Below, in pieces: positions 35,084 through 62,195 of a stretch of 64,000 nucleotides of DNA. The notes under the pieces are model-generated. The model was not told where the DNA came from and ran no database searches. It was given only the letters and a program-made list of their open reading frames with translations. Both the position numbers and the translations under genes were made by a program. The DNA comes from an uncultured Nitrospiraceae bacterium (GTDB lineage: Bacteria; Nitrospirota; Thermodesulfovibrionia; Thermodesulfovibrionales; SM23-35). The DNA lies in NCBI GenBank assembly GCA_963727775.1, contig CAVSHB010000002.1, positions 384,001-448,000 on the forward strand. The letters are read 5' to 3'. Every line of letters begins with the position of its first letter. The stretch's first letter is position 1.

Positions 35084-35188
35084 CAGAGCAGATGCAGTAT
35101 CAGAGCGGCTTTATCCCGATTTGATCGGGATACCTCGGAGGTCCGCAAAAGCGGACCGAGAATGAGCGATGATACTGCATCTGCTCTG
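35084..35188 (+). repeat. structured three-way-junction element, copy 1
   Basis: Perfect 19-bp IR (35084-35102 / 35170-35188) enclosing GCGGCTT-[ATCCCGAT/ATCGGGAT]-ACCTCGGA-[GGTCCGC/GCGGACC]-GAGAATGAGC. Confidence 0.85.
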
Positions 35189-35207
35189 AGCGAGGAAAAT
35201 ATTTATA

Positions 35208-35981
35208 ATGCAGGTTAGAATGCGGAAACCAAATGATAATCTATCTTGTGATCTCCTTAACTCCTGGAAGGACAATATCTCTTTTGTCCTTGTGGAGCCG
35301 AAGGACCCCGGCAATATCGGTGCTTCTGCAAGAGCTTTGATAAATATGGGGTTCCCGAATCTTGAACTCGTTAATCCCGGACATTTCTTTACCAGCGAGG
35401 CCAAACAGATGGCCTGCCAGGGGGTTAAGGTCCTCGAAAATGCAAGGGTCCACAAGAGTTTCAGAGAGGCTGTTGAGGACAAGAATCTTGTTGTCGGTAC
35501 CACAAGAAGGCTGGGGAAGAGGCGGGGGCTTATTGTGCCGTTGAAGGAGAGTGTGAAACGAATTCTCACCGCTTCTATAAAGAATAAAGTTGCAATCCTG
35601 TTCGGCAGGGAACGCAACGGCTTGACCAACCGGGAAATAGAGGAATGCGGACTTTTAGTAACGATCCCCTCCGACCCTGATACCCCGTCGCTGAATCTTG
35701 CACAGAGTGTCATGCTGGTCGCCTACGAGCTCAGCCAGAAATCATATAAGGCCGATCTGCCGGCTATGATTAAGCATAAAGAACTTGAACCGCTTTATGC
35801 CCGAATCGAATCGACCCTCAAACTGCTTGAATTTATCCCGCGGGGCGACGCGGACCTTGAAAAGAAAATCCTGAAAAATCTCAAACACCTCATCGGCAGG
35901 GCAGGGCTGACAGAGTGGGAACTCAAGATGATGTACGGAATCTGCACTCAAGTGGAGCATAAGGTAAAAGAGAAAATATAA
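35208..35981 (+). CDS. trmJ: TrmJ/LasT family SPOUT RNA methyltransferase
   Basis: PGNIGASARA..NMG, VVGTT, LFGRERNGL, SLNLAQSV. Confidence 0.88.
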   Translation: MQVRMRKPNDNLSCDLLNSWKDNISFVLVEPKDPGNIGASARALINMGFPNLELVNPGHFFTSEAKQMACQGVKVLENARVHKSFREAVEDKNLVVGTTRRLGKRRGLIVPLKESVKRILTASIKNKVAILFGRERNGLTNREIEECGLLVTIPSDPDTPSLNLAQSVMLVAYELSQKSYKADLPAMIKHKELEPLYARIESTLKLLEFIPRGDADLEKKILKNLKHLIGRAGLTEWELKMMYGICTQVEHKVKEKI

Positions 35982-36190
35982 TTGTTGAATTATTTAAATA
36001 AAGTTGTACAGTATAAAATAAAGTCGTACAGTGAATATCTGGGTATATCGTGCAAAATGAAGCGTATGAAATATGATTTGATTCCACCTGCTGCCTATTT
36101 TAAGTGCCTACCATTTTACTAATGAGGGTTCTGATTTCACTTTCTCACAGTAACTCGCAAAATTGTCCAGTCTTCATAAATGCTTAGTAC

Positions 36191-36450
36191 GCCCTGAAGT
36201 ATGCAGACCTTGACGACACCGATGTTGTTACCCGGTTAGATCACCCTGCAATCAGTCCTGTTATTCCGGCGTGAAATTCTGGTAGAAACCTTATCGACAG
36301 CCGGCAAGAAGTAAGAAGATCAGAATTTTCATAAGCGGGTGCGGATAACATTTACTTATGCGCAAAATATACGTACTGCCGCGGCATTCTGCGTAACTAT
36401 ATTATTGTGGATTATTCTATCGCAACTCGCCGAAATGATTATCGCTTGGG
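36191..36450 (+). pseudogene. decayed serine resolvase/invertase remnant
   Basis: ALKYADLDDTDVVTRLDHPAIS at 36191-36256 resembles GDTLVVTRLDRLARS; IILSQLAEM further downstream. Confidence 0.5.
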
Positions 36451-36730
36451 TACTGAAATATAGGATCAATCTTGAGTGTTAGTTGTGGCTGATCTGGCCC
36501 GGTAAATTCAATGATCCCACCCTCTAAGCTTAAAGATCTTGCCTCGACCGGTTATCTAACACACCACCTCTTTTTGGCACAGTCGGGAAATGATGTCGAC
36601 GCCACTGCCCTATGTCTATTGACTCTCATTGTTTACTTGCCGGATGGCAATGTTACTCAACATATTGCTTCCAGTTCTTCTGGTCTTGCGTTTTACACTA
36701 ACATTCTTAGTTCACCTCAGCAAAATCCTA

Positions 36731-38071
36731 GGTAGTGTCAACTATTTTGTGTAAATTTGATAAAGGGGCAAATTGGGTCGCACCTTTCCTATTGGATTTG
36801 ATCTCCAACTCAACTCCATCTTTAACGATATAAAAGCAAGAAGCCTATAACAGGCATCCTCTCCGGCTACTATCTCCATAGTCTTCGTTCTTCTCTTGAA
36901 TTCCTTGTTCAGGCGCTCAATAATGTTCGACGTCCGTAATGATATCCATTCTTCTTCCGGGAACTTGAAGAATGTCAAACAGGCGTCTATTGACTGGCCT
37001 AATGATTTCACGGCTGAGGGGAGTTCTTTGCTCCACTTCGTGTAAAAGCTCCTGTAGAATTCATCTGCCTTTCCTTTTGAAGAGGCATAGAATATAGACC
37101 TCAGATCATCTGCTACTTCCTTTTTCAATTTATGAGGTACCTTCGCCAGTACATTACGGGCCACATGCACCTGGCACCTCTGCACTTTTGCATTGGGAAA
37201 CTCTTCTTCAAATACTTTCTCCAGCCCAGAAAGCCCATCCATGATTCCCAGCCTCACCGATGACCCGTCGAGCCCTCTGCTTTTTAGATCCTTAAAAAAC
37301 TCCCTCCAGTTCGTAGCCGATTCCTTGTCGCCGCTCTGCAGACCGAGCACTAATTTCGTTCCATCCCCTGTTACCCCTATTGCTGCAAGTACGGGGACAT
37401 TCTCCACACTATACTTCAATCTCATCTTGAAGATCACGCCGTCTACAAAGATGTATTTTATTGGCTCCTGGGATAAATCACGGTTGCGCCAATTCTCTAC
37501 CCCTGCCGTCAATTCCTTGCTCGCCTTGCTCACTTCTTCATGAGATATCTCACGCCCTATAAGTCTCTTGCTTAACATCGAGAGCGTCCGCGTGCTTATC
37601 CCCGTCAGATACATCATCGACAGATCCTCCGCGATCCTGGTTTCATATCGCTTCCCACGAGGCAATACCTGTGTCTGATATTCGCCCTTCCGATCTCTAG
37701 GTACCTTTACTGCTACTTCTCCAATCCCCTTAATACAGAAGTCCCGGGGATAGCTCCCGTTGCGATGGTTGGCCTCCCCCTTGCCACGCTCATATCTTCC
37801 ACGCCCTAAAACATGCGTCAGTTCTGCCTTCATCAGGTTCGTCAAATAGTTGCCTACGTCCTTTTGCACATTCAGCGTGGCCATCTCAAATATCCTCGAC
37901 GGATTCTCCTGCAATTCTTTGATTAAATTTACGACTTCTGGTACGCTAATCTTAATTTCCATGGGTGCTCCTCCTTTTGATTTTTGTTATTGGTCTAACA
38001 AAATATTTTATAGGAGGTGCGCCCTTATTTTTCCCCTCGTTTGAATTTCACACAGTCAAGTTTACACTGTC
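36731..38071 (-). mobile_element. IS256-family insertion sequence, 1341 bp
   Basis: 8-bp TSD AAATCCTA (36723-36730, 38072-38079); imperfect IRs GGTAGTGTCAACT / GACAGTGTAAACT. Confidence 0.93.
36742..37962 (-). CDS. IS256-family transposase
   Basis: RNG, VPRDR.G, FVDG, MDG.SGL, QRCQVH, SNIIERLNKEFKRR. Confidence 0.95.
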   Translation of the reverse strand: MEIKISVPEVVNLIKELQENPSRIFEMATLNVQKDVGNYLTNLMKAELTHVLGRGRYERGKGEANHRNGSYPRDFCIKGIGEVAVKVPRDRKGEYQTQVLPRGKRYETRIAEDLSMMYLTGISTRTLSMLSKRLIGREISHEEVSKASKELTAGVENWRNRDLSQEPIKYIFVDGVIFKMRLKYSVENVPVLAAIGVTGDGTKLVLGLQSGDKESATNWREFFKDLKSRGLDGSSVRLGIMDGLSGLEKVFEEEFPNAKVQRCQVHVARNVLAKVPHKLKKEVADDLRSIFYASSKGKADEFYRSFYTKWSKELPSAVKSLGQSIDACLTFFKFPEEEWISLRTSNIIERLNKEFKRRTKTMEIVAGEDACYRLLAFISLKMELSWRSNPIGKVRPNLPLYQIYTK

Positions 38072-39407
38072 AAATCCTAACGTAATTTCTAAATTAGCCG
38101 AATACATTGGTATTTTCAAATTGGCTGAAGAATTGATCGATAATCTCAGGGAGAAAAAGGCCTTCCTAAAGGCTGTTTTAGATGTCGTCATTAAAGCGGA
38201 TAACGTTCATCATGTAATTACCCCGGAAATTATTATCAACTATTTTGACGTTATCAAAGATGTGCTTCCTGATACATATCAAGACGTCGTTAAAAGAAGT
38301 GCAGAGGGCGCCAATCTTGCCGAGATACTAACAGAATACGAGTTTCATGGTGACCTTTCAGATTTGTATTTGTTATGCCTGGACATTACAACGGAAAAGA
38401 CTCAAGAAAGTTTTGTGAAGTATCTGGCCGCAGAGATGTGCGCTCTTGATTTACAGAAATGGCTTTCTGAAGTTAAGAACACTGACTTTGTTAATCTAAC
38501 AAAAAGAATCATTAACCTCGGACAAAATGAGTGTGTTAATTATATCCATAAAAATCTCTAGTCCTTATCAAAGGATATTTGGCAAGCGGCCTTGTCTGCT
38601 AACAGTAATGTGGTTCGAATTTTGGAGCTTTTATCTGGCGATCTTAATCTGACAACTGACTTCGGCGATGCACTCCTTGAGGAATCCAAAAAGCAAATTA
38701 ATAGTGGAAAGGCACTTTGGGAAATATCTACGGCTGAACGACTTCTTAATGCACTAAATGGCCCGTTGAGATCTACCTTTCTACGGGATATGCGAGACTA
38801 TATCATAAAATATGAGAAGACTATTTCTCCTGCTATTATATTATTTGGTAAACCATTAAGTAATACTTTTGACGACGCATCAAAGGACAAAGCTGATGAT
38901 GCGTTTCGTCATTTATTTAAGGGTATTTTAGAGCGAAAAGAATCTATAGAAGTCGATTGGCTAAGCGATGTAATATCTTCAAGTGAAATTGCTGAACAAT
39001 GCGAACCAGAATCTCTTGAGTCATTTAAAACTAGACTGATAGACCTATTAAAAGATGATGCCGTAAATGAAGAAATTAAAGAAAAAGCTAAACGTATTGC
39101 GACAGCATTGGGAATAGATGTGGAGCAGATTTATTCAATAAAGGCTGATGAAAAAGAAGTTAAAGAAGTTGGAGAAAAATAAATAAGCGAGATCTATTGT
39201 TGTAACCCCAGAGGGCAATCAAAAGATTTCGATTCCCTTAGATTGGAATGTTACACAGTTTGAGGGGAACAAAATGGGGTCTTGCGGTTATGCATTTAAA
39301 ACCTTCTTTCTGAAATAGTCTCCGGGCAACAATAGACCAATCTATCTTTTCAAGGTGAAGTAAATAACATTCTGATATAATAATATAGATATCAGTCTTT
39401 AATTTTC

Positions 39408-39632
39408 ATGATTGGAGGTTGTATCATGGATCTTCTCAATTATTCTCTCTCTATTTTGATCTCGTTATTCATAGGGCTTGCCGGTTTTATCATTGTCTAC
39501 AAGATATTCGACTGGATGACTCCAGGCGTCCATTTCTCTGACCAATTAAAAGCGGACAACAAATCAGTGGCTATTTTTCTTGCCGGTCTTTTTATCGGAT
39601 TAGGTCTTCTTCTTGGTAACGCGATCAAATGA
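39408..39632 (+). CDS. DUF350-like small membrane protein
   Basis: Two hydrophobic helices around FDWMTP...QL...NKSVAI. Confidence 0.75.
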   Translation: MIGGCIMDLLNYSLSILISLFIGLAGFIIVYKIFDWMTPGVHFSDQLKADNKSVAIFLAGLFIGLGLLLGNAIK

Positions 39633-40102
39633 TTCGTCTGCGTCGTCTTTTCATCCTATTTTCTTCTCTCTTGATCGGTGGATTTCTCTTGACTTCGGGG
39701 ATTGCACAGCCCTTACAAGATCCCGACCAATCAGATACTGTGTGTTTTACAATCCAGAGAACAGCCGAAAAATATCTCGGCAAACCGTACGTATGGGGTG
39801 CTGTTGGTCTGAAGAGTTTTGACTGTTCAGGTTTTATCTGGCGCGTTATGGCTGAAAACGGGATTCTTGTGAAGAGGACAACCGCACGAAAACTCTATAT
39901 GAGCCTTCCCCGTGCTAAGAAAGGCAGTCCTTATGCCTCCGGGGTACTTGTATTTTTCGATAATCTGAAACATGTGGGTATTGTGAAAGACCGGGAATTT
40001 TTTTACCATGCCCAGGTCAGCATAGGTACGAACCTCTCAGCGTTTGAGCCATACTGGCGCCGCAAAATCTGCGGATTCAGGAGATTCCCGATACAGTCAT
40101 AA
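39629..40102 (+). CDS. NlpC/P60 (C40) cell-wall peptidase
   Basis: Signal peptide; LGKPYVWGA, FDCSGF, HVGI, HA. Confidence 0.9.
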   Translation: MIRLRRLFILFSSLLIGGFLLTSGIAQPLQDPDQSDTVCFTIQRTAEKYLGKPYVWGAVGLKSFDCSGFIWRVMAENGILVKRTTARKLYMSLPRAKKGSPYASGVLVFFDNLKHVGIVKDREFFYHAQVSIGTNLSAFEPYWRRKICGFRRFPIQS

Positions 40103-40140
40103 TCAGTTGCTGAACAGTTCACACTGTGTGAGAGGAAACG

Positions 40141-40731
40141 ATGTCATTTCAACCGAGTGCTATAGAGATTCAGCTACCTGAGTGGATCGAAAGTTTCTTG
40201 CTTGGGTACCCTGCTTATATTTTCTCAATCCAGGACCGCATGTCGTTCGTCATCGAAGCTGCGCGACTTAATGTTTCCAAAGGTACCGGAGGCCCTTTCG
40301 CAGCTGCGGTATTTGAGACTGAGTCCGGACAATTGATCTCATTGGGTGTTAATCTGGTTACCTCTCAGGGGTTATCTATCCTTCACGCGGAAATGGTGGC
40401 TTTTGCACTTGCACAGAAAAAGATAGGCAGCTACGACCTTGGCAGGCACGACTTGCCTGCTCACGAGCTCGTCACCAGTATAGAGCCATGTGCTATGTGT
40501 TTCGGCGCAATTCCCTGGTCCGGAGTGCGAAGGGTCATTGCCGGTGCCAGGGATTCTGATGCGAGAAGAATCGGCTTTGACGAAGGACCTAAACTGAAGG
40601 ACTGGAGAAGCGAGTTAGAGAAGAGAGGTATTGCTACCATCTGCGATGTCAGTCGGGAAGCTGCGGCGCAGGTTCTTCTTGACTACTCCTTACAGGGCGG
40701 AAAAATCTACAACTCGCGAGAGTCGGGATAG
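40141..40731 (+). CDS. nucleoside deaminase family protein
   Basis: GGPFAA, HAEM, EPCAMC, GFDEG. Confidence 0.88.
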   Translation: MSFQPSAIEIQLPEWIESFLLGYPAYIFSIQDRMSFVIEAARLNVSKGTGGPFAAAVFETESGQLISLGVNLVTSQGLSILHAEMVAFALAQKKIGSYDLGRHDLPAHELVTSIEPCAMCFGAIPWSGVRRVIAGARDSDARRIGFDEGPKLKDWRSELEKRGIATICDVSREAAAQVLLDYSLQGGKIYNSRESG

Positions 40732-40997
40732 TGTTTGAACTGTGCTGCGCGGTAAAACGAAGTCTGCACGAGTGAGATGATTATGCCAACTTGTCATTTT
40801 CCGGGTTAACGAATATAGCATAGTGGGTTTTCTTAGAAGAGAAATTTATTGGACGTCGATGGTGAGTCAATTTTCAACGCCGCTGGACACTTTAGTCTCT
40901 TTTATTAAATTCACACCATTTGATTACTATTTATCATGAAAATTGATATAATTGTGTTTATTACAACCGCAAATTATCTAACAATAAGGAGGTCTAT

Positions 40998-41165
40998 ATG
41001 CCTGCTTACGAATATGTTTGTAAAGACTGTAACCATGAGATTACCGTTTTCCTCTCTCTTAAAGAATTTGAAGCTAAACCAAAAATTAAATGTCCTCATT
41101 GTGGAAGTGACAATGTTCAGAAAAAAATCTCGGAATTTAGTACAAAAACAAGCAAAAAGTCGTAG
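40998..41165 (+). CDS. FmdB-family zinc-ribbon protein, 55 aa (not in ORF track)
   Basis: MPAYEYVCKDCNH...CPHCGS; SD AAGGAGG. Confidence 0.88.
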   Translation: MPAYEYVCKDCNHEITVFLSLKEFEAKPKIKCPHCGSDNVQKKISEFSTKTSKKS

Positions 41166-41286
41166 CTATTCTGTAAGTGTTTGCCGTTAATTGCACCCGC
41201 TATTTAGCAGCATGCTGCGTTGTTGTTTGCCGCCACATTTGCAAATGAATTGTCTCATCCCCAACTTTCATTAGTCTAACCTTTAA

Positions 41287-41390
41287 TACAAATAAGTAGC
41301 ACAATTTTGTAGTGATGTAACATTAATGTAGTATGTATCGGATTCTGTTTTCTTTAAAAGCAATGCGTTACGATTGGCATGGTTTTAGAT
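41287..41390 (+). promoter_or_regulatory. sigma54-like promoter with upstream activator sites and an IHF-like site
   Basis: ACA-N4-(T/A)GT boxes at 41288, 41301, 41320; AAGCAATGCGTTA at 41358-41370; TGGCATGGTTTTAGA at 41375-41389 (GG-N10-GA, imperfect -12). Confidence 0.55.
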
Positions 41391-41417
41391 ATATGTCCAG
41401 CTAACGGAGGAATGTAA

Positions 41418-41615
41418 ATGGATACATTAACGGATAAAGTTAAGGAAATAGAAAAGGAAGAAATAATAAATGCTTTGAGGGAGTGCAATTGGGTCATGTC
41501 GAGGGCGGCAAGAAAACTCGGCATAACCGAAAGGATGATCGGTTACAAGATCAAAAAATATCATATTAAAAAGGAGGTGAAGTATATCGAAGATGATCCG
41601 ATGAGTGATCAATAG
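41418..41615 (+). CDS. stand-alone Fis/NifA-type HTH protein
   Basis: EKEEIINAL..CNWVMSRAARKLGITERMIGYKIKKY; SD GGAGG. Confidence 0.82.
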   Translation: MDTLTDKVKEIEKEEIINALRECNWVMSRAARKLGITERMIGYKIKKYHIKKEVKYIEDDPMSDQ

Positions 41616-41674
41616 CGCAGTTCACAAAAAAATAGATTAAATGTATCTGTTGATTTAATTAAAAGGAGGGAAGG

Positions 41675-42799
41675 ATGACGAAAAGGATTTTTACAAGCGG
41701 GCTGATGTTTTTAGTGTTATTAACATTCAGTGCGGGAGCATGGGCGGATGAGGAGAAGAAGGCAAGCGGTATCAATGTTGACGAAATAAAGAAAGCGCTC
41801 GGCCTGAGCATATACCTGCAGGGAGGATACAACTATAACTTTGCGAGCCCGGATTCGGGTGAGAACCAGTTGAGGGTGTTCGACCATAAGGCCAACAGCT
41901 TTACGCTGGACCTTGCGCAGATACAATTTGTAAAAGACCCGGCCGTAGGCGGCTTAGGCTATAAGCTGAAATTATCATTCGGTGAGACCGCTAAGTTCAT
42001 CCATGCCACGGGCCTCGGCAATGCAGGCGACGAATTTGACCTCACAGAGGCGTATGTAAGTTATTCAGCACCGTTGGGTAAGGGCCTCAGGTTCGACTTT
42101 GGAAAGATGGCGACATATCACGGGGCGGAGGTGATCGAGGCAAGGGACAACCCGAATTATTCCCGCTCTTATCTTTTCAACTTTGCCATACCATTTACCC
42201 ATACAGGGCTGAAAATGAGTTATGCATTTTCCGATGCCCTGAACGCGTCGGTCCATGTAGTCAATGGTTGGGACAACTTCAACGATAACAACAAGTCGAA
42301 AACCATGGGCTTATCAGTCGGCTATACCCCGGTTGAGCAGCTTGCAATGATTTTCAACCTTATGTACGGCCCTGAAAAGGACGATAACAACCACGACAAC
42401 CGTTTTCTGTTCGACTGGGTAGGTACGATAAAGCCTGTAAAGAACCTGAGCATAATACTGAATACCGATTATGCGACAGAGCAGCACTCTGATCCCGACA
42501 GCGGCGGCACGGCCAAATGGTATGGAATAGCGGCAATCGCAAAATACGACTTCAGCGACATGTACAGTTTGTCGTTGAGGGGAGAGTATTTCAATGATCA
42601 GAATGGCGTGAGGACTGGGACCCCGCAGCATTTGAAAGAAGTAACGCTGACGCCGGAGATCAGGGTAGCACAGGGTTTGATCGTGAGGCCTGAGTACAGG
42701 CATGACTGGTCGAACGGAACAGTGTTCGATGCACACGACACGCCGCTGAACAAGAAGCAGCAGGACACCATCGCGGTAGCGTTGATGTATACATGGTAG
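41675..42799 (+). CDS. putative outer-membrane beta-barrel porin
   Basis: Signal peptide; EAY, FDFGK, NYSRS, PFTHTG, VNGWD, EYRHDWS; terminal aromatic residue. Confidence 0.8.
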   Translation: MTKRIFTSGLMFLVLLTFSAGAWADEEKKASGINVDEIKKALGLSIYLQGGYNYNFASPDSGENQLRVFDHKANSFTLDLAQIQFVKDPAVGGLGYKLKLSFGETAKFIHATGLGNAGDEFDLTEAYVSYSAPLGKGLRFDFGKMATYHGAEVIEARDNPNYSRSYLFNFAIPFTHTGLKMSYAFSDALNASVHVVNGWDNFNDNNKSKTMGLSVGYTPVEQLAMIFNLMYGPEKDDNNHDNRFLFDWVGTIKPVKNLSIILNTDYATEQHSDPDSGGTAKWYGIAAIAKYDFSDMYSLSLRGEYFNDQNGVRTGTPQHLKEVTLTPEIRVAQGLIVRPEYRHDWSNGTVFDAHDTPLNKKQQDTIAVALMYTW

Positions 42800-42830
42800 A
42801 AAAAAAGATAAATCAGCAAAGGAGACAAGT

Positions 42831-44857
<2,027 letters not shown>

Positions 44858-44867
44858 TAATAAGAAT

Positions 44868-44909
44868 GGACCCGGGGGCTTTACATTTGTCAAAGCCTTC
44901 GGGTCCTTT
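44868..44909 (+). terminator. hairpin between the P-II gene and glnA
   Basis: GGACCCGGGGGCTTT...AAAGCCTTCGGGTCC followed by TTT. Confidence 0.55.
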
Positions 44910-44963
44910 ATTGAAAATTAGCTGTCCGAATAAAATCAATAATATGTAAGTGGAGGCGAGAAC

Positions 44964-48765: not shown

Positions 48766-48887
48766 GACCGTGGCGTATATAGTGTTTTCGCTCATTCTCG
48801 TCCGCCTCGGCGGACTCCGAGGTAAATTTTGTTCCGTTAAATCTGCACAGAATTTAAATCCGCGAAAACACTATACACGCCATGGTC
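48766..48887 (-). repeat. structured three-way-junction element, copy 3 (inverted)
   Basis: 26-bp IR with 2 mismatches. Minus-strand core: GCGGATT-[hairpin]-ACCTCGGA-[GTCCGCC/GGCGGAC]-GAGAATGAGC. Confidence 0.85.
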
Positions 48888-48932: not shown

Positions 48933-49871
48933 TTGTCCGTGCAGAAATTATTTGTGCAAAAAGGAGAATCGGGAGAGAGGCTCGACACATTCCTCGCTAA
49001 GACAACATCCGTCACGCGTTCTCAGATACAAAGGCTCATAGAAAAAGGGGATGTTCTTGTAAACGAGAAACATTCTAATCAGAACTACAGAGTAAAAATA
49101 AATGACGCCATAACAATAAATGTCACTGAATATAAAAATGAAGAGCTTATTCCGGAGCCGATCGGGATTGATATCCTTTACAAAGACGAGCATCTCGTTG
49201 TTGTCAATAAACCTGCCGGTATGGTGGTATATCCCGCTGCCGGTCACAGCCAAGGCACACTCATGAACGCGCTTTATTATTACTGCGGGAAGCTTGCCAC
49301 AGTGGGAGGTCCGCTTAGACCCGGTGTTGTGCACCGGCTTGATAAGGATACGTCGGGCCTGATGGTTGTAGCCGTTGATGATAAGTCTTACTATGACCTT
49401 GCTGAACAATTCAAAGAGAGGACAATAAACAGAAAATATATTGCCTTGGTTTATGGAAATCTCAAAGGGGATGAAGGAGAGATAGCTCTCAGGATAGGAC
49501 GTTCCGAATCGGACAGGAAAAAAATGTCAACCCGCGTAAACAAAGGCAAAGAGGCCGTAACGAGATGGAAGGTAAAAGAAAATTTCAGAGGCGCCACGTT
49601 GATGGAGATAAAACTCGGCACAGGGAGAACACACCAAATAAGGGTGCATTTCGCTTCCATCGGACATCCTGTGCTCGGAGACAGGACGTACGGGAAAAAG
49701 ATCGATATTACCGTTAAGTCCGGCAAGAAGATTTCTTTCCCGAGACAGATGCTTCATGCGGAATTATTGGGGTTCACGCATCCTGTAACAGGCAGTCACC
49801 TTGAATTTACCGGACCTTTACCCGAGGACATGGCCCAAAAGATTCGTGAAATCCGGGACCGCAACAAATAA
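48933..49871 (+). CDS. rluD: RluA/RluD family pseudouridine synthase with S4 domain
   Basis: RLD.FL, NKPAGMVV, VHRLDKDTSG, TGRTHQIRVH, LHA. Confidence 0.9.
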   Translation: MSVQKLFVQKGESGERLDTFLAKTTSVTRSQIQRLIEKGDVLVNEKHSNQNYRVKINDAITINVTEYKNEELIPEPIGIDILYKDEHLVVVNKPAGMVVYPAAGHSQGTLMNALYYYCGKLATVGGPLRPGVVHRLDKDTSGLMVVAVDDKSYYDLAEQFKERTINRKYIALVYGNLKGDEGEIALRIGRSESDRKKMSTRVNKGKEAVTRWKVKENFRGATLMEIKLGTGRTHQIRVHFASIGHPVLGDRTYGKKIDITVKSGKKISFPRQMLHAELLGFTHPVTGSHLEFTGPLPEDMAQKIREIRDRNK

Positions 49872-49873
49872 AC

Positions 49874-50953
49874 CTAATCACCGAAACAGATACCCAGAGA
49901 TCTTGCGGCCTGCATTATGCCTGAAGCAAGATGCACGCACTTCATCTTACCGATTGCCTCTTCAATCGGCACAGCACAGACTTCGGTAGATCGAAGGGCA
50001 ACCATTTTGCCGAACTTGCCCGCCTCAATGAACCGTATTGCAGCGGTCCCGAACCGAAGTGCAAGCAACCTGTCAAAGGTAGTCGGCGCACCACCTCTCT
50101 GAAGATGGCCTAATACCATATCCCTCGTCTCTTTCCCCGTCCTTTTCCTGATCTCTTCCGATACTTTTTTCCCGATACCGCCAAGCCTGAGTTCTTCCCC
50201 CGGTTTTTTTTCTTCTACAACAGTGATGTCCCCTCCAACCGGCATGGCGCCCTCAGCTACGACAACAATGGCATAATCCTGGCCGACGAGTGAGAGTTGT
50301 CTTATCTTGTTGCATACTTTTTCGGTATCAAAAGGTATTTCGGGTATCAGGATTACATCGGCGGACCCGGATATGCCCGAGTGCAGAGCTATCCATCCTA
50401 CATAACGCCCCATCACCTCAACCACCATAACCCTGTCGTGAGATTTTGCGGTAGTATGAAGTTTGTCTATCGCTTCAGTTGCCGTATTGACTGCCGTATC
50501 GAACCCGAAGGTCACATCTGTTGAATTGATGTCATTATCAATAGTTTTCGGGACCCCGATGATGGGAAGTCCCTTTTTGATAAATTTGTTCGCAATGCGG
50601 AGACTGCCGTCACCGCCGATGGCGATAAGCACGTCGAAGCCAAGGGCCTTGAAATTTGAGACAACCGTATCCGAGATGTCCGTCTCGTAAATGTTTCCAT
50701 CGTGATTTTTTACCACATATGTGAACGGATCACCCTTAATCGCTGTGCCGAGGATGGTCCCTCCGATATTTGTGATGTCCCAGACACTCTCGGGAGTAAG
50801 CCGCACAATCTGTTTTGTATCAATAAGGCCCTGATAGCCGTATTTTATGCCATAAACTTCCCACCCCTTTTGGTAAGCGGCAAGGACAATGCCCCTGATG
50901 ACTGCGTTAAGACCGGGCGCATCGCCGCCTCCGGTATTAATAGCTATCTTCAT
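49874..50953 (-). CDS. pfkA: 6-phosphofructokinase
   Basis: TGGGDAPGLNA, GGDGS, PKTIDND, EVMGR, LGHLQRGG. Confidence 0.92.
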   Translation of the reverse strand: MKIAINTGGGDAPGLNAVIRGIVLAAYQKGWEVYGIKYGYQGLIDTKQIVRLTPESVWDITNIGGTILGTAIKGDPFTYVVKNHDGNIYETDISDTVVSNFKALGFDVLIAIGGDGSLRIANKFIKKGLPIIGVPKTIDNDINSTDVTFGFDTAVNTATEAIDKLHTTAKSHDRVMVVEVMGRYVGWIALHSGISGSADVILIPEIPFDTEKVCNKIRQLSLVGQDYAIVVVAEGAMPVGGDITVVEEKKPGEELRLGGIGKKVSEEIRKRTGKETRDMVLGHLQRGGAPTTFDRLLALRFGTAAIRFIEAGKFGKMVALRSTEVCAVPIEEAIGKMKCVHLASGIMQAARSLGICFGD

Positions 50954-52133: not shown

Positions 52134-52135
52134 GA

Positions 52136-52750: not shown

Positions 52751-52752
52751 GC

Positions 52753-54114: not shown

Positions 54115-54195
54115 TTCAATTCAACAGTCGCTCAGTGCGGAGGGTAAGTTGTGTGGAGGTTTTTTGTTTCATGATCTGTAGGCTGTTCACTCTGC

Positions 54196-54630
54196 TCATA
54201 CCGGCTCTATGAGAAATAACGGCTCACCGTACTCAACAGGCTGTCCGTTTTCGACCAATATTTTTACGATGATACCGTCGGAATCACTTTCGATTTCATT
54301 CATCAGCTTCATTGCTTCTACAATACAGAGTACCTGGCCTTTGTTCACCTTCGACCCTAATTCTACGAAAGGAGACGCTTCAGGCGTAGGCGACCTGAAG
54401 AACGTGCCGACAATCGGCGAGGTTATTGTTGCAACCCTCCGGGTCTCTTCCTCAGTCTCGGCCGTTATTTTCTCTTGCAGGCCCGCGTGCTTATGTAAGG
54501 GCATCTCTAAAGAGGTCAATATCTTCTCCCTTTTGATCTTGACCTTCGTCCCGTCTTTTTCTACCTGCAACTCGGTTATATCTGTCTCCTTGAGAAGTGA
54601 AATAAGCTCTTTTAAATCCTCAAGTTCCAT
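54196..54630 (-). CDS. accB: biotin carboxyl carrier protein
   Basis: [16 protein letters not shown]. Confidence 0.96.
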
Positions 54631-55193
54631 TATTTTACCCTTTCCATATATACCGACGTCCTTGTGTCGATTCTGATGATATCTCCTTCATTTATGTGAA
54701 AGGGCACTCTTACTACTGCCCCTGTTTCCAGTGTGGCAGGTTTCCCGCCTCCGGATGCCGTATCTCCCTTGAACCCGGCGGGGTCTGTCTTCGTAACAGC
54801 GAGTTCTACAAAGATAGGCACCTCTATGCTTATCGGGGCGTCCTTGTGATACAGTATCTTGACCGTCATATTTTCCTTAAGGAAAGTTTTTGTATCACCC
54901 AGCTGGGAAAGAGAAAGCGGTACCTGTTCGTATGTCTCCAGGTCCATAAAGTAATAGTGATCATCCTGTGAATAAAGATACTGCATGCTTTTTTCTTCGA
55001 GTCCGGGCCTGTCCAGTTTTTCTCCGGACCTGAATGTCTCCTCAAGAACAGCGCCTGTTTTAAGGTTCTTCAGTTTGGTCCTGACAACAGCTCCACCCCT
55101 TCCCATCTTGACATGCTGAAAGTCGACTATTTCACAGGGCTCACCTTTAAATTCCACCTTGAGTCCTTTTTTAAAATCACTTGTTGAAATCAA
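54630..55193 (-). CDS. efp: elongation factor P
   Basis: [23 protein letters not shown]. Confidence 0.95.
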
Positions 55194-55352
55194 GTCAAAT
55201 CCCTCCTATTGAAAGTGTAAATATTTTAGCATTTTCTGCGAATTTTTCCATCAACCCAAAGAATAATGCCCTTTTTAAGCGTATTTTTTCTTGACATTCA
55301 TTTCGTTGGATATGTACGCTACGTGACAATATTGTTGAAAGGGGGAAGGACA

Positions 55353-56678
55353 ATGAAAAACCGGTTTCAGGGTAATCGGCAGGGTATCTTATTTATTGTG
55401 GTGTGCATTTTTTTCGCATCGTCAGCCCCGGCATTCGGCGCTGGGTTTGGGCTTATCGAGCAGAGTGTGAGCGGGTTGGGCAACGCGTTTGCAGGAGGCG
55501 CTGCAAGCGCTGAAGACGCTTCCACCATATTCTTTAATCCGGCCGGGTTGACACACCTGCAAGACCAGCAGTTAATACTCGGCGCGCACATCATTGACCC
55601 TTCAGTAAAATTTCATAATGAGAATTCCATTCATGTGACGGGAGCTCCGCTGTCGGGCGGCAACGGCGGCGACGGCGGTATTACAAAAGTAGTCCCTAAT
55701 TTTTATTACAGCAGGAAAATCAGTGATCGTTTTTCCGTCGGACTCGGCGTAAATTCACCGTTCGGACTTGCTACTCAGTATGATAGGACCTGGGTCGGTC
55801 GTTACCACGCTGTGGATTCGGATTTGATCACTATCAACATTACCCCAACTATAGCGTATAAAATAACGGACCAATTAAGTTTCGGCGCCGGCCTCGATAT
55901 ACAATATATGAAGGCAAATCTTTCTAGCGCCGTTGATTTCGGCACCATCGGCTTTAGCCATCATATCCCCGGTCTTTTCCCACAGCTCAATGACGGGTTG
56001 GTCAGTCTCGAAGGGGACAGTTGGGGAATCGGGTTTAACCTGGGACTCCTTTATGAATTCGACAAGAACACGCGTGTCGGTATTGCATATCGCTCAAACA
56101 TCGAGCAGGACCTGGGGGGGACAGCCCATTTCCAGAATGTCCCTGCGGCCCTGCAATCTTCTTTCCGCGATGACAAAATAAAAGCGGATATTACGCTGCC
56201 TGACAGCATTTCAGTCAGTTTCTTTCATCAGTTTACCCCGCAATGGATGGTCATGACGGATGTCACCTGGACGGACTGGAACCACTTTAAGGATTTAGTG
56301 GTTACTTTCAACAACCAGCCTGCTTCCATAACGACTGAAGACTGGCAGGACGGTTTTCGCTATTCGCTCGGCGCGACTTATTTGCCCGATAAGAATTGGA
56401 CTTTGAGGGTCGGCACTGCTTATGACAGATCAGCGGTCCCCGATAAGGCACACCGTACCCCTAGGATTCCCGACAGTGACCGCGTATGGACGGCAGCCGG
56501 CATAGGATATAAGCTTTCAAACATGTTTAGCGTCGATGTCGGCTATGCGCATATTTTTGTGAACAACCCCGAGATAGACAAGAACCCTACAGGGGAAGAT
56601 CAACTGAGAGGAGGCTTAAAAGGGTCATTTGACGCCCATATCGATATTGTGAGTGCTTCGGTCACCATGAAATTTTAG
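55353..56678 (+). CDS. fadL: FadL/OmpP1 outer-membrane long-chain fatty acid transporter
   Basis: EQSVSGLGNAFAG, FFNPAG, PFGL, PDSDR, terminal F. Confidence 0.88.
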   Translation: MKNRFQGNRQGILFIVVCIFFASSAPAFGAGFGLIEQSVSGLGNAFAGGAASAEDASTIFFNPAGLTHLQDQQLILGAHIIDPSVKFHNENSIHVTGAPLSGGNGGDGGITKVVPNFYYSRKISDRFSVGLGVNSPFGLATQYDRTWVGRYHAVDSDLITINITPTIAYKITDQLSFGAGLDIQYMKANLSSAVDFGTIGFSHHIPGLFPQLNDGLVSLEGDSWGIGFNLGLLYEFDKNTRVGIAYRSNIEQDLGGTAHFQNVPAALQSSFRDDKIKADITLPDSISVSFFHQFTPQWMVMTDVTWTDWNHFKDLVVTFNNQPASITTEDWQDGFRYSLGATYLPDKNWTLRVGTAYDRSAVPDKAHRTPRIPDSDRVWTAAGIGYKLSNMFSVDVGYAHIFVNNPEIDKNPTGEDQLRGGLKGSFDAHIDIVSASVTMKF

Positions 56679-56679
56679 G

Positions 56680-58206
56680 ATGCTCCTCCATCAGCATTTT
56701 GTCGGAATCGCAAAGAGGTACGGCAATAAACTTGCCTTTATTGACCGTACCTCAGATAAGAGGATCACTTATTCCAAGTCGTTAATCGCTTCCATTATCC
56801 TTGCGGAGAAGGTAAAAAAGCATAATGAAGGTTTTGTCGGGATTATGATCCCGACCTCTGCAGGGTGCGCCCTGTCGATCCTCGGCACCCTGATGAGCGG
56901 GAAAACGCCGGTCATGATCAATTACTCAACCGGCGCTGCGAACAATGCCTTATATGCCCAGCAGAAATGTAATTTCAAGACGATTATTACGTCAAAGGCA
57001 TTGCTCGATAAGATCAGTTGCCCTGTTATCGACGGTATGGTTTTCATCGAAGATATCATGGATAGTATATCCGTCAGGGAAAAACTCCGGGCGGTTTTGA
57101 TCGCAAAATTACCGGTACCCCTGATCCTTAAAATTCTTCACGGTGGGCAAAAAGATGACAACCTGGTCATCCTGTTTACGAGCGGCAGTGAAAAAGACCC
57201 CAAGGCTGTGCAGTTGACCCATCGCAATATCGCGTCGAATATCAGAAGTTTCACGCGGATAATGAAAATGTATGAAACCGATGTGTTGCTTGCAAACCTG
57301 CCGTATTTTCATGTCTTCGGACTCACAGTTAATCTCTGGACGCCTTTATATTTCGGAATGACGATAGTCTCTTATGCAAATCCCCTTGACTACAGGATGA
57401 TCTGCACTATTTTACGCGAGGAGAAACCGACTGTGATGGTCGGCACCCCGAGTTTTCTATCAGGCTATCTTCGTAAAGCAGAGCCTGATGATTTCAAGAG
57501 CTTGCGGCTTATCGCGAGCGGAGCGGATAAATGTCCTGAGGGACTGCGAAAGGAATTTCTCGAAAAACACGGCATTACACTCTTTGAAGGATACGGAGCT
57601 ACTGAAACGTCTCCTGTTATCTCTACGAACACGCCTGAATACAACAGGCCGGGAAGTGTAGGGAAAGTGCTCCCGGATGTCATGGTCCGCATTGAGAATT
57701 ATGAGACCGGCAAGGAATGCAAATGTGGAGAGACCGGCAGGATCCTGGTGAAAGGCGATCTGGTTATGAAGGGATACCTGAACGATTTTGAGGAAACCTC
57801 AATGCGCATAAGACATGGCTGGTATGACACCGGAGATATGGGCTATCTGGACAAGGAAGGGTTTCTGTGGCATGCCGGAAGGCTGAAAAGGTTCGTGAAA
57901 ATCGGCGGCGAGATGGTATCTTTAGTTAAGGTTGAAGATGTGCTGCAGAAAGTCCTTCCGGAAGATGTCTTCTGTTCGGTGGTCGAAATCCCCGATGCGT
58001 TAAAAGGCGTGAAAATAGTTGCCGCTGTTACCGAAAAGGTCGATGAGAGAAAAGTCCTGAAAGCGATGTCGGAACAACTCCCCAATATTGCCCTGCCTAA
58101 ACTCTTCGTTGTCATAGCGGAACTCCCGAAGATGGGAAGCGGCAAAGTGGATTTTCGTACCGTTACCGATATGGTCCAGGCGATTATGCGAACAAATATG
58201 ACCTGA
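56680..58206 (+). CDS. AMP-binding acyl-ACP/CoA synthetase (like the Aas C-terminal part)
   Basis: FTSGSEKDPK, EGYGATETSP, WYDTGD, RFVKIGGEMVSL, GSGK. Confidence 0.88.
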   Translation: MLLHQHFVGIAKRYGNKLAFIDRTSDKRITYSKSLIASIILAEKVKKHNEGFVGIMIPTSAGCALSILGTLMSGKTPVMINYSTGAANNALYAQQKCNFKTIITSKALLDKISCPVIDGMVFIEDIMDSISVREKLRAVLIAKLPVPLILKILHGGQKDDNLVILFTSGSEKDPKAVQLTHRNIASNIRSFTRIMKMYETDVLLANLPYFHVFGLTVNLWTPLYFGMTIVSYANPLDYRMICTILREEKPTVMVGTPSFLSGYLRKAEPDDFKSLRLIASGADKCPEGLRKEFLEKHGITLFEGYGATETSPVISTNTPEYNRPGSVGKVLPDVMVRIENYETGKECKCGETGRILVKGDLVMKGYLNDFEETSMRIRHGWYDTGDMGYLDKEGFLWHAGRLKRFVKIGGEMVSLVKVEDVLQKVLPEDVFCSVVEIPDALKGVKIVAAVTEKVDERKVLKAMSEQLPNIALPKLFVVIAELPKMGSGKVDFRTVTDMVQAIMRTNMT

Positions 58207-58247
58207 GGTATTAATGGTCGACCGAGCAGGACACAGATATATAGGCA

Positions 58248-59345
58248 TCAAATAATTTCGAGCTTCTTGGGCAGCGAAGTTAGAACAACTGCCTTGTTTT
58301 CTACGATCACAATCATGTCCTCTATCCTTACCCCGCCCAATCCCGGGATATAGATGCCCGGCTCGATAGTGAAGACCATATTTTTTCTGACAAGCTCACT
58401 CCTGGTCCAGGATATACGGGGCGCTTCATGTACCTGAAGTCCGACACCATGACCGGTACCGTGTCCGAAGAATTTTTCGAAACCTGCCTTTCGGATAAGA
58501 TCCCTCGCAGCTTCATCTATCTTTTTTGTTTGTATTCCAGACGCAATATGCGAAATCGCCTTCCGGTTTGCTTCCAGGACCGTATTATAGACTTCCTTTT
58601 TCTTTCCTGTTTCAACTCCGCCTTTTAGGAGGAGAGTTCTTGTCATGTCGGAAAAGTAATCATCGGCCTCTCCGCCCCAGTCTATAATCACGAAATCCCC
58701 TTTGTTCAATTTTTTTTCGGTCGGTCTTGCATGGGGCATGGCTGAATTCGGGCCTGAAGCAATAATGATGTCAAAGGGGATATTCCTGCAGCCCCACTTT
58801 TTGAGCCGCTCTTCAAGACGGCGCGATATTGCCATTTCTTTTGCCCCTTCCTTAATGTACGGTTTCACATCTGTGAATGCCGCCTCGGCGCGTCTTATCG
58901 CTTTATTTATAGAATCGATCTCTGCCTTATCTTTTATCTCCCTCAATTTCTCGACGGTCCCTTGCAAAGGGATTAGACCAATGCCGATGCCGGATATCTT
59001 TTTGAAAAACTCATAGGATACTGAAGATTCGAACCCGAGTTTCCCGATGCTCATCTTTTTGGAAAGATCCTGAATTATCTTTATCCTGTTCCCGGTTTCG
59101 ATGATGATATCCCACCCCTCGACTTCCTTCCCTGATTGTTCTTTATATCTGAAATCTGTCACAAAGAATTGTCCCGTTGCTGTAATGATAAGAAAGCCCG
59201 AGGAGCCTGAAAAGCCGGTAAGATAGCGGATGTTGGTAATGTCCGTTACTAATAAGCCGTCAAGACCTTTGCTCCTGAGGGCCTGTCTTATAGCCTTGAG
59301 CCGTGAGGAATATATATTTATAGATGTTGCAACCATAACAGCCAA
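58248..59345 (-). CDS. Xaa-Pro aminopeptidase (M24B)
   Basis: NIRYLTGF.GS, TDFRY, SDMTRT, HGTGHGVG, HE.P, TIEPGIY, GVRIED. Confidence 0.92.
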   Translation of the reverse strand: MAVMVATSINIYSSRLKAIRQALRSKGLDGLLVTDITNIRYLTGFSGSSGFLIITATGQFFVTDFRYKEQSGKEVEGWDIIIETGNRIKIIQDLSKKMSIGKLGFESSVSYEFFKKISGIGIGLIPLQGTVEKLREIKDKAEIDSINKAIRRAEAAFTDVKPYIKEGAKEMAISRRLEERLKKWGCRNIPFDIIIASGPNSAMPHARPTEKKLNKGDFVIIDWGGEADDYFSDMTRTLLLKGGVETGKKKEVYNTVLEANRKAISHIASGIQTKKIDEAARDLIRKAGFEKFFGHGTGHGVGLQVHEAPRISWTRSELVRKNMVFTIEPGIYIPGLGGVRIEDMIVIVENKAVVLTSLPKKLEII

Positions 59346-59459
59346 ATTACAATAACCGAATCGTGTTCAGGAATTCAATGATATGAGGAGCCCCTTGTCC
59401 TACCAGGTGTAAAAAAGATTAGTTTGAAGTTTTGAGTATGTCGTTATTATAATTTAGGT

Positions 59460-59651
59460 ATGGAAAAGATGAAATATATTTATTGGCAGGACGAAGGAAT
59501 GTGGCTGGGATATTTGGAAGACTATCCTGATTACATGACACAAGGGGAGTCAATTGAAGAACTGGAAGATAATTTGAGAGACATTTTCAAGGAACTTACA
59601 AGCGGAAATATTCCTTGTGTTCGTAAAGTAGCAGAACTCCAAGTCTCTTGA
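59460..59651 (+). CDS. HicB-like short antitoxin
   Basis: WLGYLEDYPDYMTQGESIEELEDNL. Confidence 0.8.
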   Translation: MEKMKYIYWQDEGMWLGYLEDYPDYMTQGESIEELEDNLRDIFKELTSGNIPCVRKVAELQVS

Positions 59652-59793
59652 AAAGAGAGGGGGTATCTTTATCAGGCATGGAGGGAAGCACGACTAGTAT
59701 CAAAATCCCAAATCTAAAACTGCGCAGCCAATACCAAGGCACAAAGAAATCAATGATAGTCTCGCCAAATATATAATTAGAAAATTAACATAA
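59648..59793 (+). pseudogene. HicA toxin pseudogene
   Basis: IFIRHGGKHD*YQNP...PIPRHKEIND.LA..I; TAG at 59695-59697 and a frameshifting 5' deletion. Confidence 0.82.
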
Positions 59794-59831
59794 TACAAAT
59801 GGGGTAAATTCTTTCCAGGCTGTTGAAAAAC

Positions 59832-59923
59832 TTGGTAATGTCCGTTACCAGTAAGCCGTCAAGCCCTTTGCTCCTGATGGCCTGCCTTAACCGAATCGTG
59901 TTCAGTATTTCAATGATATGAGG
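59832..59923 (-). repeat. diverged duplicate of the Xaa-Pro peptidase 5' end and upstream DNA
   Basis: Matches 59233-59290 fused to 59355-59388. Confidence 0.88.
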
Positions 59924-60252
59924 GCATGCCGTGCATGCAAAATTTATTGAAGATATTATACGAATATTCGGAAATGGCAAAATCAACACGATAATCCGGA
60001 TACCTTTACAGCGAACACTCGTGGATATTTTATGTCTTCAAGATAAATGAGAAGCCGTTTTCGGATGAGGTTAAATAAATATTTCTTTCACCTCCTACAA
60101 TGTCGCAGAAGCAAGAGGAGATGACAAATAAAGAATTGCAGTTGAAACATGGGAACCTTAAATCCGCTGATTTGGTCTAACGTTTTCGATGAAAAGCAGT
60201 CTCAGGGATTTGCGTGGTAGCCTTTCCTGCCATTGTTACGCGATAGCCGATT

Positions 60253-61116
60253 TCATATGTTACTTTTCCCAATGTTGCATATTGAACATAATGTCTGGAG
60301 ATTCTCAGGCACAGTTTCTCCACCATTTGAATAAGCAACAACATGGTCGACGTGCAAAATCACTTTAGGGTCAGTAGCAGGTGATCTGCCACAACCCTTA
60401 CATTTGAAATTGTCACGCTTTATGACGATAAAACGCAGGCGAGACGAGATATTTCTTTTAGTTTTGTGCTTCTTAACTAAGTCTTGCGGAACAGCTGACG
60501 AATTAATTACTGCAATTTTTCTCGTCAAAGGCTGTGTGTATTCTTTGTTAATATATTCAATAAATCGTTCAAGCGCTTTTTGCCATGTGCCAAATCGTTG
60601 CTAATAGGCACTACCGACGTATTTTGACAATGGCTTCAGCATATCATTGTATTTCGGTTGTCGTCCAAGTTTTACCCAAACTTCCTCTAAGTTTTCAAAA
60701 TATTCTTCATCAGTAACTCCATAGTTTCTGGTCTTCTCCAATCCAGCTTTTTCTAATGCTTTAAGCCATGTGCCAAACCTCTGTGAAAAAACTGATTTAC
60801 TGTATTGGCCATGTTGTTCATACTCAGTAGTTGTTACACTATATTTTTTTAATTTTTGTGAGACTCGCTTTAGATCATTGATCAGTTCTACATCTGTTAA
60901 TCCTAAATTTCTCGTTTTTTCCAACCCTGCCAGTGATAAAATCTTGAACCATGATCCAATTTTATTCCTCAAGGTTGTGCAGTGATATTTCCCGTATTTG
61001 TTGTACTCTTCCTGAGTAACAGACGCCTTTCCCAATAGAGAAGCAACACGTTTCAAGTCCGCGATCATTTTTTCTTCTGAAACATTTCTGTGGAATTCTT
61101 CTAATTCAAATTTCAT
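60253..61116 (-). pseudogene. HNH endonuclease with three N-terminal repeats, interrupted by an in-frame TAG
   Basis: Repeats (F/I)G(S/T)W..(A/I)L..AGL; AY*QRFGTW at 60601-60603; RDNFKCKGCG...LHVDH...GG...NLQTLC..CN..K. Confidence 0.85.
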
Positions 61117-61254
61117 AATTTATACCGTAAGCTCAGTTTCGCACAAAGGGAAATTATTATCTATCCCATTTTAGATTACCTGTTGTACTACACAACATTA
61201 TATCAGGGTTCAGACGCAATGAATTCAGGAATAAAAATTAATAAGAACAGCATC

Positions 61255-61680
61255 TTATTCAGGTCTGAAGAGCGTTAAGAAAGACGTGGGGCCTACGATC
61301 TTAATTCCCTGATAATGTTTCAAGTCTGTAAGATGGCGATCTCCGGAAATAATATAGTCAGCTCCTCCTTCTGCTGCGCATTCCACATACTTGTCGTCTG
61401 TCGGATCATCTTTGACGATTTCTATCCTCATGACACCGGGTATGAATTCAGCAAAGGCTGTTAATTTGCCGAGATTTTCATCCACCTGCTCAGGACCGAA
61501 GCCGTGGAGCTTCCTGATGTGAGGATAAAGTAAGACCTTTCTCACCTCTTCCAAAATAGCAGGAGAAATCAGCAGTCTCAGTTTGTCGTCTCGTATCAAA
61601 TTGAGAATTCTGGCCGGGTTGCCCTTCGCTGTTATAATACCGCTGACAAACAGATTGGCGTCGAGTACGACTTTAAGCAT
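61255..61680 (-). CDS. PIN-domain toxin
   Basis: VVLDANLFVSG, DDPTDDKYVECA, ADYIISGDRHL. Confidence 0.9.
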   Translation of the reverse strand: MLKVVLDANLFVSGIITAKGNPARILNLIRDDKLRLLISPAILEEVRKVLLYPHIRKLHGFGPEQVDENLGKLTAFAEFIPGVMRIEIVKDDPTDDKYVECAAEGGADYIISGDRHLTDLKHYQGIKIVGPTSFLTLFRPE

Positions 61681-61963
61681 GCCGGCGGGTTGCCCCGGAT
61701 TTTTTTACCGCAACCGCTGTCTCACTTACCGCCTTTTCGATATCCTTTAGTTTTATATGCTTTGTTTTTACCCTGACCTCCTCTACCCAGTTAAAGAATT
61801 CCTTCTTTTCTTCCTGTATCTGCTTGTATTTTTCTATGGGTATGACGGCCACCAGCGGCTTGCCGGCTCGTTCGATAATATAGTCTTCCCCTTTCAGGGA
61901 GACCTCGTTCATTATCTGACCTAAATTCTGTCTTGCCTTTATAGCCGATATTTTTTTAATCAT
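61673..61963 (-). CDS. Phd/YefM family antitoxin
   Basis: ISAIKARQNLGQIMNEV...IIERAGKPLV; overlaps the PIN gene. Confidence 0.88.
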   Translation of the reverse strand: MIKKISAIKARQNLGQIMNEVSLKGEDYIIERAGKPLVAVIPIEKYKQIQEEKKEFFNWVEEVRVKTKHIKLKDIEKAVSETAVAVKKSGATRRHA

Positions 61964-61983
61964 GGGAGCACTCCTTTATCATA

Positions 61984-62000
61984 ATGGTTGATATAACCAT
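61984..62000. promoter_or_regulatory. palindromic operator candidate for Phd-PIN autoregulation
   Basis: ATGGTT-N5-AACCAT just upstream of the antitoxin SD. Confidence 0.4.
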
Positions 62001-62074
62001 TATAACTGATATGGTAAAAACTATAAAGTCAAATGTGAGTCTTCCCCATGTTATTTACAAACGGCGAGATATAG

Positions 62075-62195
62075 GCGAGGATAGAGTATTGGAGCGGATT
62101 CTTTTGCCGATACTCAAATGCATTATGATAATAATGAGGCAAAATCCCTCGGAGGTCGGAACGACCGAGAATGAGCTCCGATACTCTATCCTCGC
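62075..62195 (+). repeat. structured three-way-junction element, copy 2
   Basis: 21-bp IR (one T-G pair) enclosing GCGGATT-[TTTTGCC/GGCAAAA]-CCTCGGA-[GGTCG/CGACC]-GAGAATGAGC. Confidence 0.85.

Follow-up and report, generated by a model that had tools for sequence, protein, structure and literature searches.

Introduction

Among the bacterial repeats so far described, the nearest to the element reported here is TwoAYGGAY (RF01731), a motif defined with a seed alignment in its supplement (Weinberg 2010, PMC2864571), in which two hairpins sit on a basal stem. It shows copy-number swings and 68% divergent doublets, and the choice between mobility and regulation is left open (bioRxiv 10.64898/2026.09.22.753630); binding to CsrA has been proposed (PMC4333381). 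Other systems that invite comparison are REP (for repetitive extragenic palindromic), BIME and REPIN sequences with their RAYT genes, the SRM/NTS repeats with their Ssn GIY-YIG genes, the ERIC/IRU and Correia miniature inverted-repeat transposable elements (MITEs), and the MITEs of the IS1380 family of insertion sequences (IS; PF13701 transposases). Here we analyse a 64,000-nt stretch of the genome of an uncultured Nitrospiraceae bacterium (GCA_963727775.1, contig CAVSHB010000002.1, 384,001 to 448,000; hereafter the window, to which all plain positions refer). It carries three copies of a 105-125-nt gene-less repeat, one strand of which is predicted to form a long stem (P1) and two hairpins (P2 and P3) around a near-invariant junction. 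A sequence-only reading of the window had remarked on these copies; its observation is confirmed as a whole and its interpretation is supported in part. By all the comparisons made here the element is a real, uncatalogued structured repeat found across phyla, and we give an even chance to the view that it is a mobile repeat built on a protein-docking RNA module with a further partner at the junction.

Architecture and conservation of the element

The three copies were found at the places and with the helix arms first described, and the expectation of many more throughout the genome was borne out, a motif search with a P1 filter yielding 71 copies in 3.43 Mb (from 123 raw motif matches) and a covariance model 74 matches, 73 at E <= 5.5e-9 and one weak. 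Both the model and the covariation test were built on 30 diverse copies chosen by hand. In this alignment 92.5% of cells pair, against 63.4% when shuffled (0 of 500 shuffles as high), and the covariation score of 0.718 lies above all 500 shuffles (mean 0.190) and above every slid register (at most 0.157). Two-sided changes are present in 28 of the 38 pairs, in P1, P2 and upper P3 alike, and the proposal of selection on structure plus core is upheld. The window copies themselves fold much more stably than their dinucleotide shuffles (z = -7 to -11), on both strands and as either RNA or DNA.

About 25 bases of the junction are almost invariant, so that their pairing cannot be read from covariation; RNAalifold and a hand-made model fold this region differently, and natural variants fit neither decisively. 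For the 5' core we read CCTCGGAG, a G-to-C variant occurring in 15 of 283. The motif GCGG(A/C)TT first proposed for the junction stands, but not its restriction to A or C, as the variable base is N (A 115, T 77, C 58, G 33; n=283). Mismatches in P1, scored on the strand of the sequence-only reading in 272 distinct copies, comprise 432 G·T against 111 A·C, and since this bias is present in all four gene contexts, one strand can be taken as the folded strand. Both orientations relative to genes do occur, as had been noted, but they are not neutral: the folded strand is antisense in 60 of the 75 copies with co-directional flanking genes (crude open reading frame calls). Triloops of the type cGNAg are more frequent on the folded than on the other strand (P2, 20 versus 2; P3, 7 versus 0) in a pooled set in which cGNRAg loops are few (3) and cUNCGg loops absent (0), and tandem GA/GA is present in 56 of 88 copies from other genomes.

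The contrast between junction and periphery is seen in the main subfamily, of 38 near-identical copies. Compared with the majority sequence, their junction strands diverge by 0.010-0.014, P2 by 0.03 and P1 by 0.07, against 0.20 for the right IS end, 0.30 for the spacer and 0.37 for the left IS end (this last value inflated by flipped copies). The 38 copies were selected on the core, and a core-independent search by P1 arm added just 5 damaged copies. On these figures conservation of the junction far exceeds that of the transposon ends in the very same copies. The types of P1, P2 and P3 (14, 11 and 13, respectively) occur in 28 combinations, with some four-gamete patterns, and conversion between copies may contribute to this module shuffling. 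Eight pairs of copies lie close together, six divergent and two convergent, and in a replichore test on 4 contigs the skew was weak.

Some copies depart from the common plan (G000 denotes the window's own genome, other G labels other genomes, and L labels individual loci). With respect to the MITE ends, the core seems to have been turned round between the P1 arms at G000 C1:119089, C1:771794, C1:953351, C2:72648 and C4:336114, and at the pyrK-pyrD site its orientation differs between genomes (G000 C2:742240 versus L032). At L038, L041, L074, L092, L159, L319 and L384 the P2 loop of some copies contains another short palindromic repeat, one with runs of G and C.

Distribution and novelty

The exact core was found in 39 of 151 genomes of the class, where a reversed control pattern gave 1 match. 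A scan of genome contigs returned at least 122 loci, mostly titled Nitrospirota/Thermodesulfovibrionia, and a metagenome scan 122 loci, 54 of them passing the P1 filter. Structured copies are also present in Desulfobacterota, Planctomycetota, Gemmatimonadota, Latescibacterota, Omnitrophota, Handelsmanbacteria, Patescibacteria and Competibacteraceae (a gammaproteobacterium); 25 genomes of other phyla, selected for holding a match, have between 1 and 89 exact cores each. Nine pattern matches in viral contigs showed no P1 stem on inspection and look like chance.

A gathering-threshold Rfam scan of the window returned tRNA only, and E-value searches of Rfam 15 with copy 1 and a further 16 loci turned up nothing of relevance, with no ribozyme or riboswitch even at permissive E-values, in keeping with the initial failure to recognise any such family in the core. 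The core is undescribed in the literature searched, outside which lie the supplements of bioRxiv 10.64898/2026.09.22.753630, which may contain variants; in the parts consulted of the Weinberg 2010 supplements, word matches were unrelated to it.

Terminal loops, csrA and the relation to TwoAYGGAY

With TwoAYGGAY the element shares a long basal stem with two sequential hairpins and tandem GA pairs, GGA loops in csrA-positive lineages, many copies with large swings in their number, and divergent doublets, here ~180-240 bp apart. It differs in the sequence of the junction, in a bulge on the 5' side of P3, in the lack of GGA loops from the copies of the window's own genome, and in its IS1380 ends, which go unreported for TwoAYGGAY in the sections of those sources consulted. 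The best RF01731 score, 21.3 bits (gathering 43) for one G122 copy, aligns the basal stem and loops and not the junction; the model found no match in the window's genome and 8 other carriers (nine of the ten genomes), nor in any genome used as a positive control. AYGGAY or GGA stands in both terminal loops of none of the 71 own copies and of 16 of the 88 copies from other genomes.

The P3 loops of many relatives agree with both the CsrB repeat and the CsrA in vitro selection (SELEX) consensus as quoted in PMC7652899. Scored with a fixed pattern, CsrA-type loops account for half or more of the copies in 14 of 17 csrA-positive carriers of the class and in 1 of 23 csrA-negative ones; for genomes of other phyla the figures are 11 of 13 and 4 of 12, respectively. 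The window's genome has no csrA and none of its 61 exact-core copies has such a loop, so the combination of GGA loops and a host csrA, by which a CsrB/RsmY-type sponge would be known, is absent here and present in many relatives. A protein-docking RNA role is likely because CsrA-type loop tips occur mainly in genomes encoding csrA, and the association points to the RNA level in those lineages. In G151, G161 and G175, two of them CsrA-encoding genomes, there is a large subfamily in which CGA replaces GGA in the loops.

Mobility and IS1380 ends

Beyond P1 there is in many copies a second inverted repeat, and it agrees with the ends of four full IS1380 copies resident in the genome. Both ends agree with the IS end at 11 or more of 16 positions in 37 of the 71 copies, compared with 0.5% of random windows. 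Identical 4-bp flanks are found in 12 of the 37, where permutation gives 4.0 (1/10000), the target duplication being a 4-bp YTAR. Of 55 IS-end-like sites in the genome 45 are linked to the core, 9 are ends of the autonomous IS, which lacks the core, and 1 is a core-deleted MITE. The YTAR target frequently overlaps a stop codon, which might explain why copies sit just 3' of genes. A relative from another genus, G180, has 57 copies; 32 of these have syntenic flanks here (two falling on one site), and comparison of empty with filled sites, a check suggested at the outset, found 28 empty and 4 filled in the same orientation, three of the four clearly holding different subfamilies. In G138 a copy with IS-type ends interrupts a GIY-YIG gene.

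Together, the IS1380-matching ends, the duplications and the empty sites indicate a mobile element that is in part a MITE; the resident IS1380 transposase likely moves it in this lineage. The earlier opinion that it does not look like a recently copied MITE does not hold, given that about half of the genome's copies lie within IS1380-type ends and that the near-identical subfamily of 38 is a MITE expansion. The resemblance to IS1380-family MITEs extends to the terminal repeats of the four resident elements, the duplications, a length of ~155-185 bp, the insertion into a coding gene and the filled and empty orthologous sites; the element differs in that its interior is a cross-phylum module, absent from the autonomous IS and without such ends in most other lineages. 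Both IS ends are present in 30 of 61 own, 8 of 51 G180 and 25 of 122 other GGA-less copies, and in 0 of 17 GGA-loop and 0 of 20 other-phylum copies, IS ends thus occurring only with GGA-less copies. ERIC/IRU and Correia MITEs have in common with the element long hairpins at the RNA level near gene ends, said to change mRNA stability (PMC3184786); they are conserved in sequence and make TA duplications, whereas the stems of the element turn over around an invariant junction.

Several further insertions were seen. MITE remnants at G000 C4:4093 and C2:308624 have lost the core, their P1 arms being fused into one short hairpin, and at G000 C1:672640 and C3:134141 an IS200-type insertion occupies the identical point in the right end of two different copies, which we read as incidental. 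The window itself encodes (696-2081, minus strand) a transposase of a second IS1380-like group (PF13701, ~96 bits) with ~18 copies in the genome and ends unlike those of the MITE.

Search for a partner gene

The suggestion that a HUH or other nuclease, a transposase or a reverse transcriptase (RT) would be linked to the copies found no support. Clustering of 516 neighbour open reading frames from 164 loci revealed no recurring nuclease, RT or transposase, and the flanking genes in the window's own genome contain no linked partner among the matches listed. Of 75 metagenome neighbours 67 were annotated with Pfam, and neither a transposase nor an RT, HUH or GIY-YIG family was among the results; most of these genes are of housekeeping or metabolic families, PIN-TRAM, TatD and Ku occur once each, and 12 have no family. 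Profiles for IS1380, GIY-YIG and RT run over 38-39 genomes, mostly metagenome-assembled genomes (MAGs), do not track the element, and an autonomous form with a gene inside P2 was looked for and not seen. GIY-YIG and RT genes near single copies were considered as partners and rejected, each having its own context; the GIY-YIG genes of relatives lie with other repeats. At L377:1250-1900 and L387:330-1120 small GIY-YIG genes stand directly 3' of tRNA genes and are flanked by tRNA-like repeats, with a tandem duplicate in G138. In the window's genome a search for a small GIY-YIG gene found only UvrC.

The REP/BIME/REPIN and SRM/NTS systems resemble the element as extragenic, strand-asymmetric palindromes near gene ends with inverted doublets and GNA loops (PMC11893778). 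They differ from it in that the element is three-armed and longer than 100 nt, with no RAYT or Ssn gene flanked by it. The degenerate SRM motif, as patterned after PMC11893778, matches none of the 71 copies. No RAYT gene bounded by the element was found; RAYT-like Y1 genes (~270-300 amino acids) at G000 C3:395453 and C2:791752 have short terminal inverted repeats of their own, unrelated to it. At the foot of REP hairpins stands a tag of the GTAG/CGTC type, and by raw count tags of this kind occur near the P1 base in 11 of the 71 copies.

Weighing the interpretations

Were the element a protein-docking RNA module, its older form, without IS ends, would have been a TwoAYGGAY-like RNA whose apical GGA loops bound CsrA. 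Lineages losing csrA, this genome's among them, would have dropped the GGA loops and retained the junction, and IS1380 ends would have captured the module and multiplied its copies. Retention of the junction after loss of both csrA and the loops would call for a second partner at the junction, and the mostly antisense placement relative to neighbouring genes might arise because the folded strand is costly within an mRNA.

A number of observations weigh against this account. Twelve of the 14 csrA-positive loop-rich genomes belong to one family, leaving few independent clades, and the association is drawn mostly from incomplete MAGs; GGA loops occur without a detected csrA in G122, G164, G168, G170 and G174 and are missing from three csrA-positive genomes (1-2 copies each), and G151 and G175 carry mostly the CGA variant. 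The structured strand is mostly not the mRNA strand, and around copy 1 sigma-70-like sites were predicted only ~130 bp upstream, by the divergent genes, with none within the element (a terminator scan of copy 1 alone found none either). DNA-stable cGNAg loops are enriched on the folded strand, and loops of GNRA or UNCG type are rare. As to mobility, exact duplications flank only 2 of the 4 autonomous IS1380 copies, and IS1380 was found in 5 of 16 element-rich genomes (mostly MAGs), in 3 of them above the family cut-off. The conservation of the core might also stem from gene conversion rather than host selection, since module types are shuffled.

The loop types and the strand bias would fit a fold acting as single-stranded DNA, and of the competing explanations this one, though tentative and the less probable, survives best. 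A nuclease or replication protein acting in trans would use the fold as its substrate or landing pad, in the manner of REP/SRM sequences, and would copy the element or keep its copies uniform; the CsrA loops and IS1380 ends would be accessories of later date. The cGNAg triloops (27 versus 2 in favour of the folded strand) are of a type whose mini-hairpins are described as exceptionally stable when made of DNA, the RNA version of a GAAA-loop example being reported to melt lower (PMC13037366). The tandem GA/GA pairs of copies from other genomes, the strand bias in every gene context and the predominance of divergent doublets agree with it, as does the finding that most G180 copies have no IS ends and yet their sites are empty here. 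The searches for an agent, however, speak the other way: no partner gene stands beside any copy in the neighbour listings searched, nor is there a small GIY-YIG gene here, the SRM pattern fails throughout, the RAYT-like genes have their own unrelated ends, and neither RT nor IS1380 follows the element's distribution. For GGA loops to go with csrA, moreover, an RNA stage is needed.

A broader and rather doubtful idea is that structured RNAs which have no genes and spread by themselves form a class that crosses phyla, and that the element is one of them, its siblings being TwoAYGGAY and comparable three-way-junction repeats. The junction would recruit an enzyme of the host or of a mobile element, or be itself catalytic, copying or overwriting elements in place, and CsrA loops and IS1380 ends would be interchangeable add-ons.

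That the element is an ordinary IS1380 MITE, its inner fold a functionless by-product kept uniform by hairpin repair and gene conversion, is improbable. The ends, the duplications, the 38-copy subfamily, the module shuffling and the shared sites holding genome-specific module types could all be so explained, but some 25 junction bases persist across phyla in copies without IS ends, the autonomous IS1380 lacks the core, and the transposase-binding ends vary more than the unpaired junction bases do. The end-less copies of other phyla have already largely refuted this explanation for the whole family. A self-cleaving or ligand-binding RNA core is equally improbable: it would fit ~25 invariant bases in bulges and non-canonical loops among freely varying peripheral helices, and would explain avoidance of the folded strand in mRNAs (60 antisense against 15), but no Rfam ribozyme or riboswitch matches, the flanking genes have no common pathway and sense-oriented copies occur inside operons.

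The copies in the window

Coordinates are collected in Table 1. Copy 1 has an isochorismatase-family gene on one side and a SpoU-family methylase gene on the other; its envelope is probably a decayed IS1380-type MITE, an assignment weak by itself and backed by the genome-wide pattern. The same intergenic region upstream of the SpoU-family gene holds, at L181 (G110), a variant-core copy in reverse orientation with IS-type ends, and G180 too has a copy at this gene, oriented as in the window.

The neighbours of copy 2 are a PIN-domain gene pair on one side and, on the other, a type II dehydroquinase gene. The pair (61255-61967, minus strand) consists of the PIN-domain gene and a probable antitoxin upstream of it, and similar PIN/antitoxin pairs lie between element copies at G000 C3:470160 and C3:471836. 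About 1 kb from copy 2, a 171-residue protein (60601-61116, minus strand) has two HNH_repeat (PF18780) stretches and was seen next to no other copy.

Across the gap that holds copy 3, a contig of a relative is 174 bases shorter, which is consistent with an empty site, the intergenic letters being unaligned. None of the three copies has an exact 4-bp target duplication. From their sequences they are diverged members of the family with ends decayed or absent.

Table 1. Parts of the three element copies in the window and an empty insertion site
Feature	Position	Strand	Remarks
Copy 1	35084..35188	+	Located by motif and P1 filter, fold and covariance model
Copy 1, P1 arms	35084-35102 / 35170-35188	+	Tandem GA/GA next to them
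Copy 1, junction GCGG-C-TT	35105-35111	+	
Copy 1, P2	35112-35132	+	
Copy 1, junction strand CCTCGGAG	35133-35140	+	
Copy 1, upper P3	35141-35156	+	
Copy 1, junction strand CGAGAATGAGC	35157-35167	+	
Copy 1, probable decayed IS1380-type MITE envelope	35056..35214	+	Ends 11/16 and 10/16 to IS end; flanks TCAG / TTAG
Copy 2	62075..62195	+	Core 62147-62176; long-P2 subfamily
Copy 2, probable decayed IS1380-type MITE envelope	62045..62226	+	Ends 12/16 and 11/16 to IS end; right flank TTAA
Copy 3	48766..48887	-	Core 48790-48822; terminal repeats not recognisable
Empty site, rluD stop codon / pfk junction	49868..49874	+	Filled by different copies in G180 and metagenome locus L289

Implications

TwoAYGGAY-like repeats are widespread and unexplained, and the present family separates their parts: the loops vary with csrA and the transposon ends by lineage, and some 25 junction bases are fixed across phyla. 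This separation provides comparative support for the CsrA idea and suggests that the junction has another job. The element is a new family to be built for Rfam.

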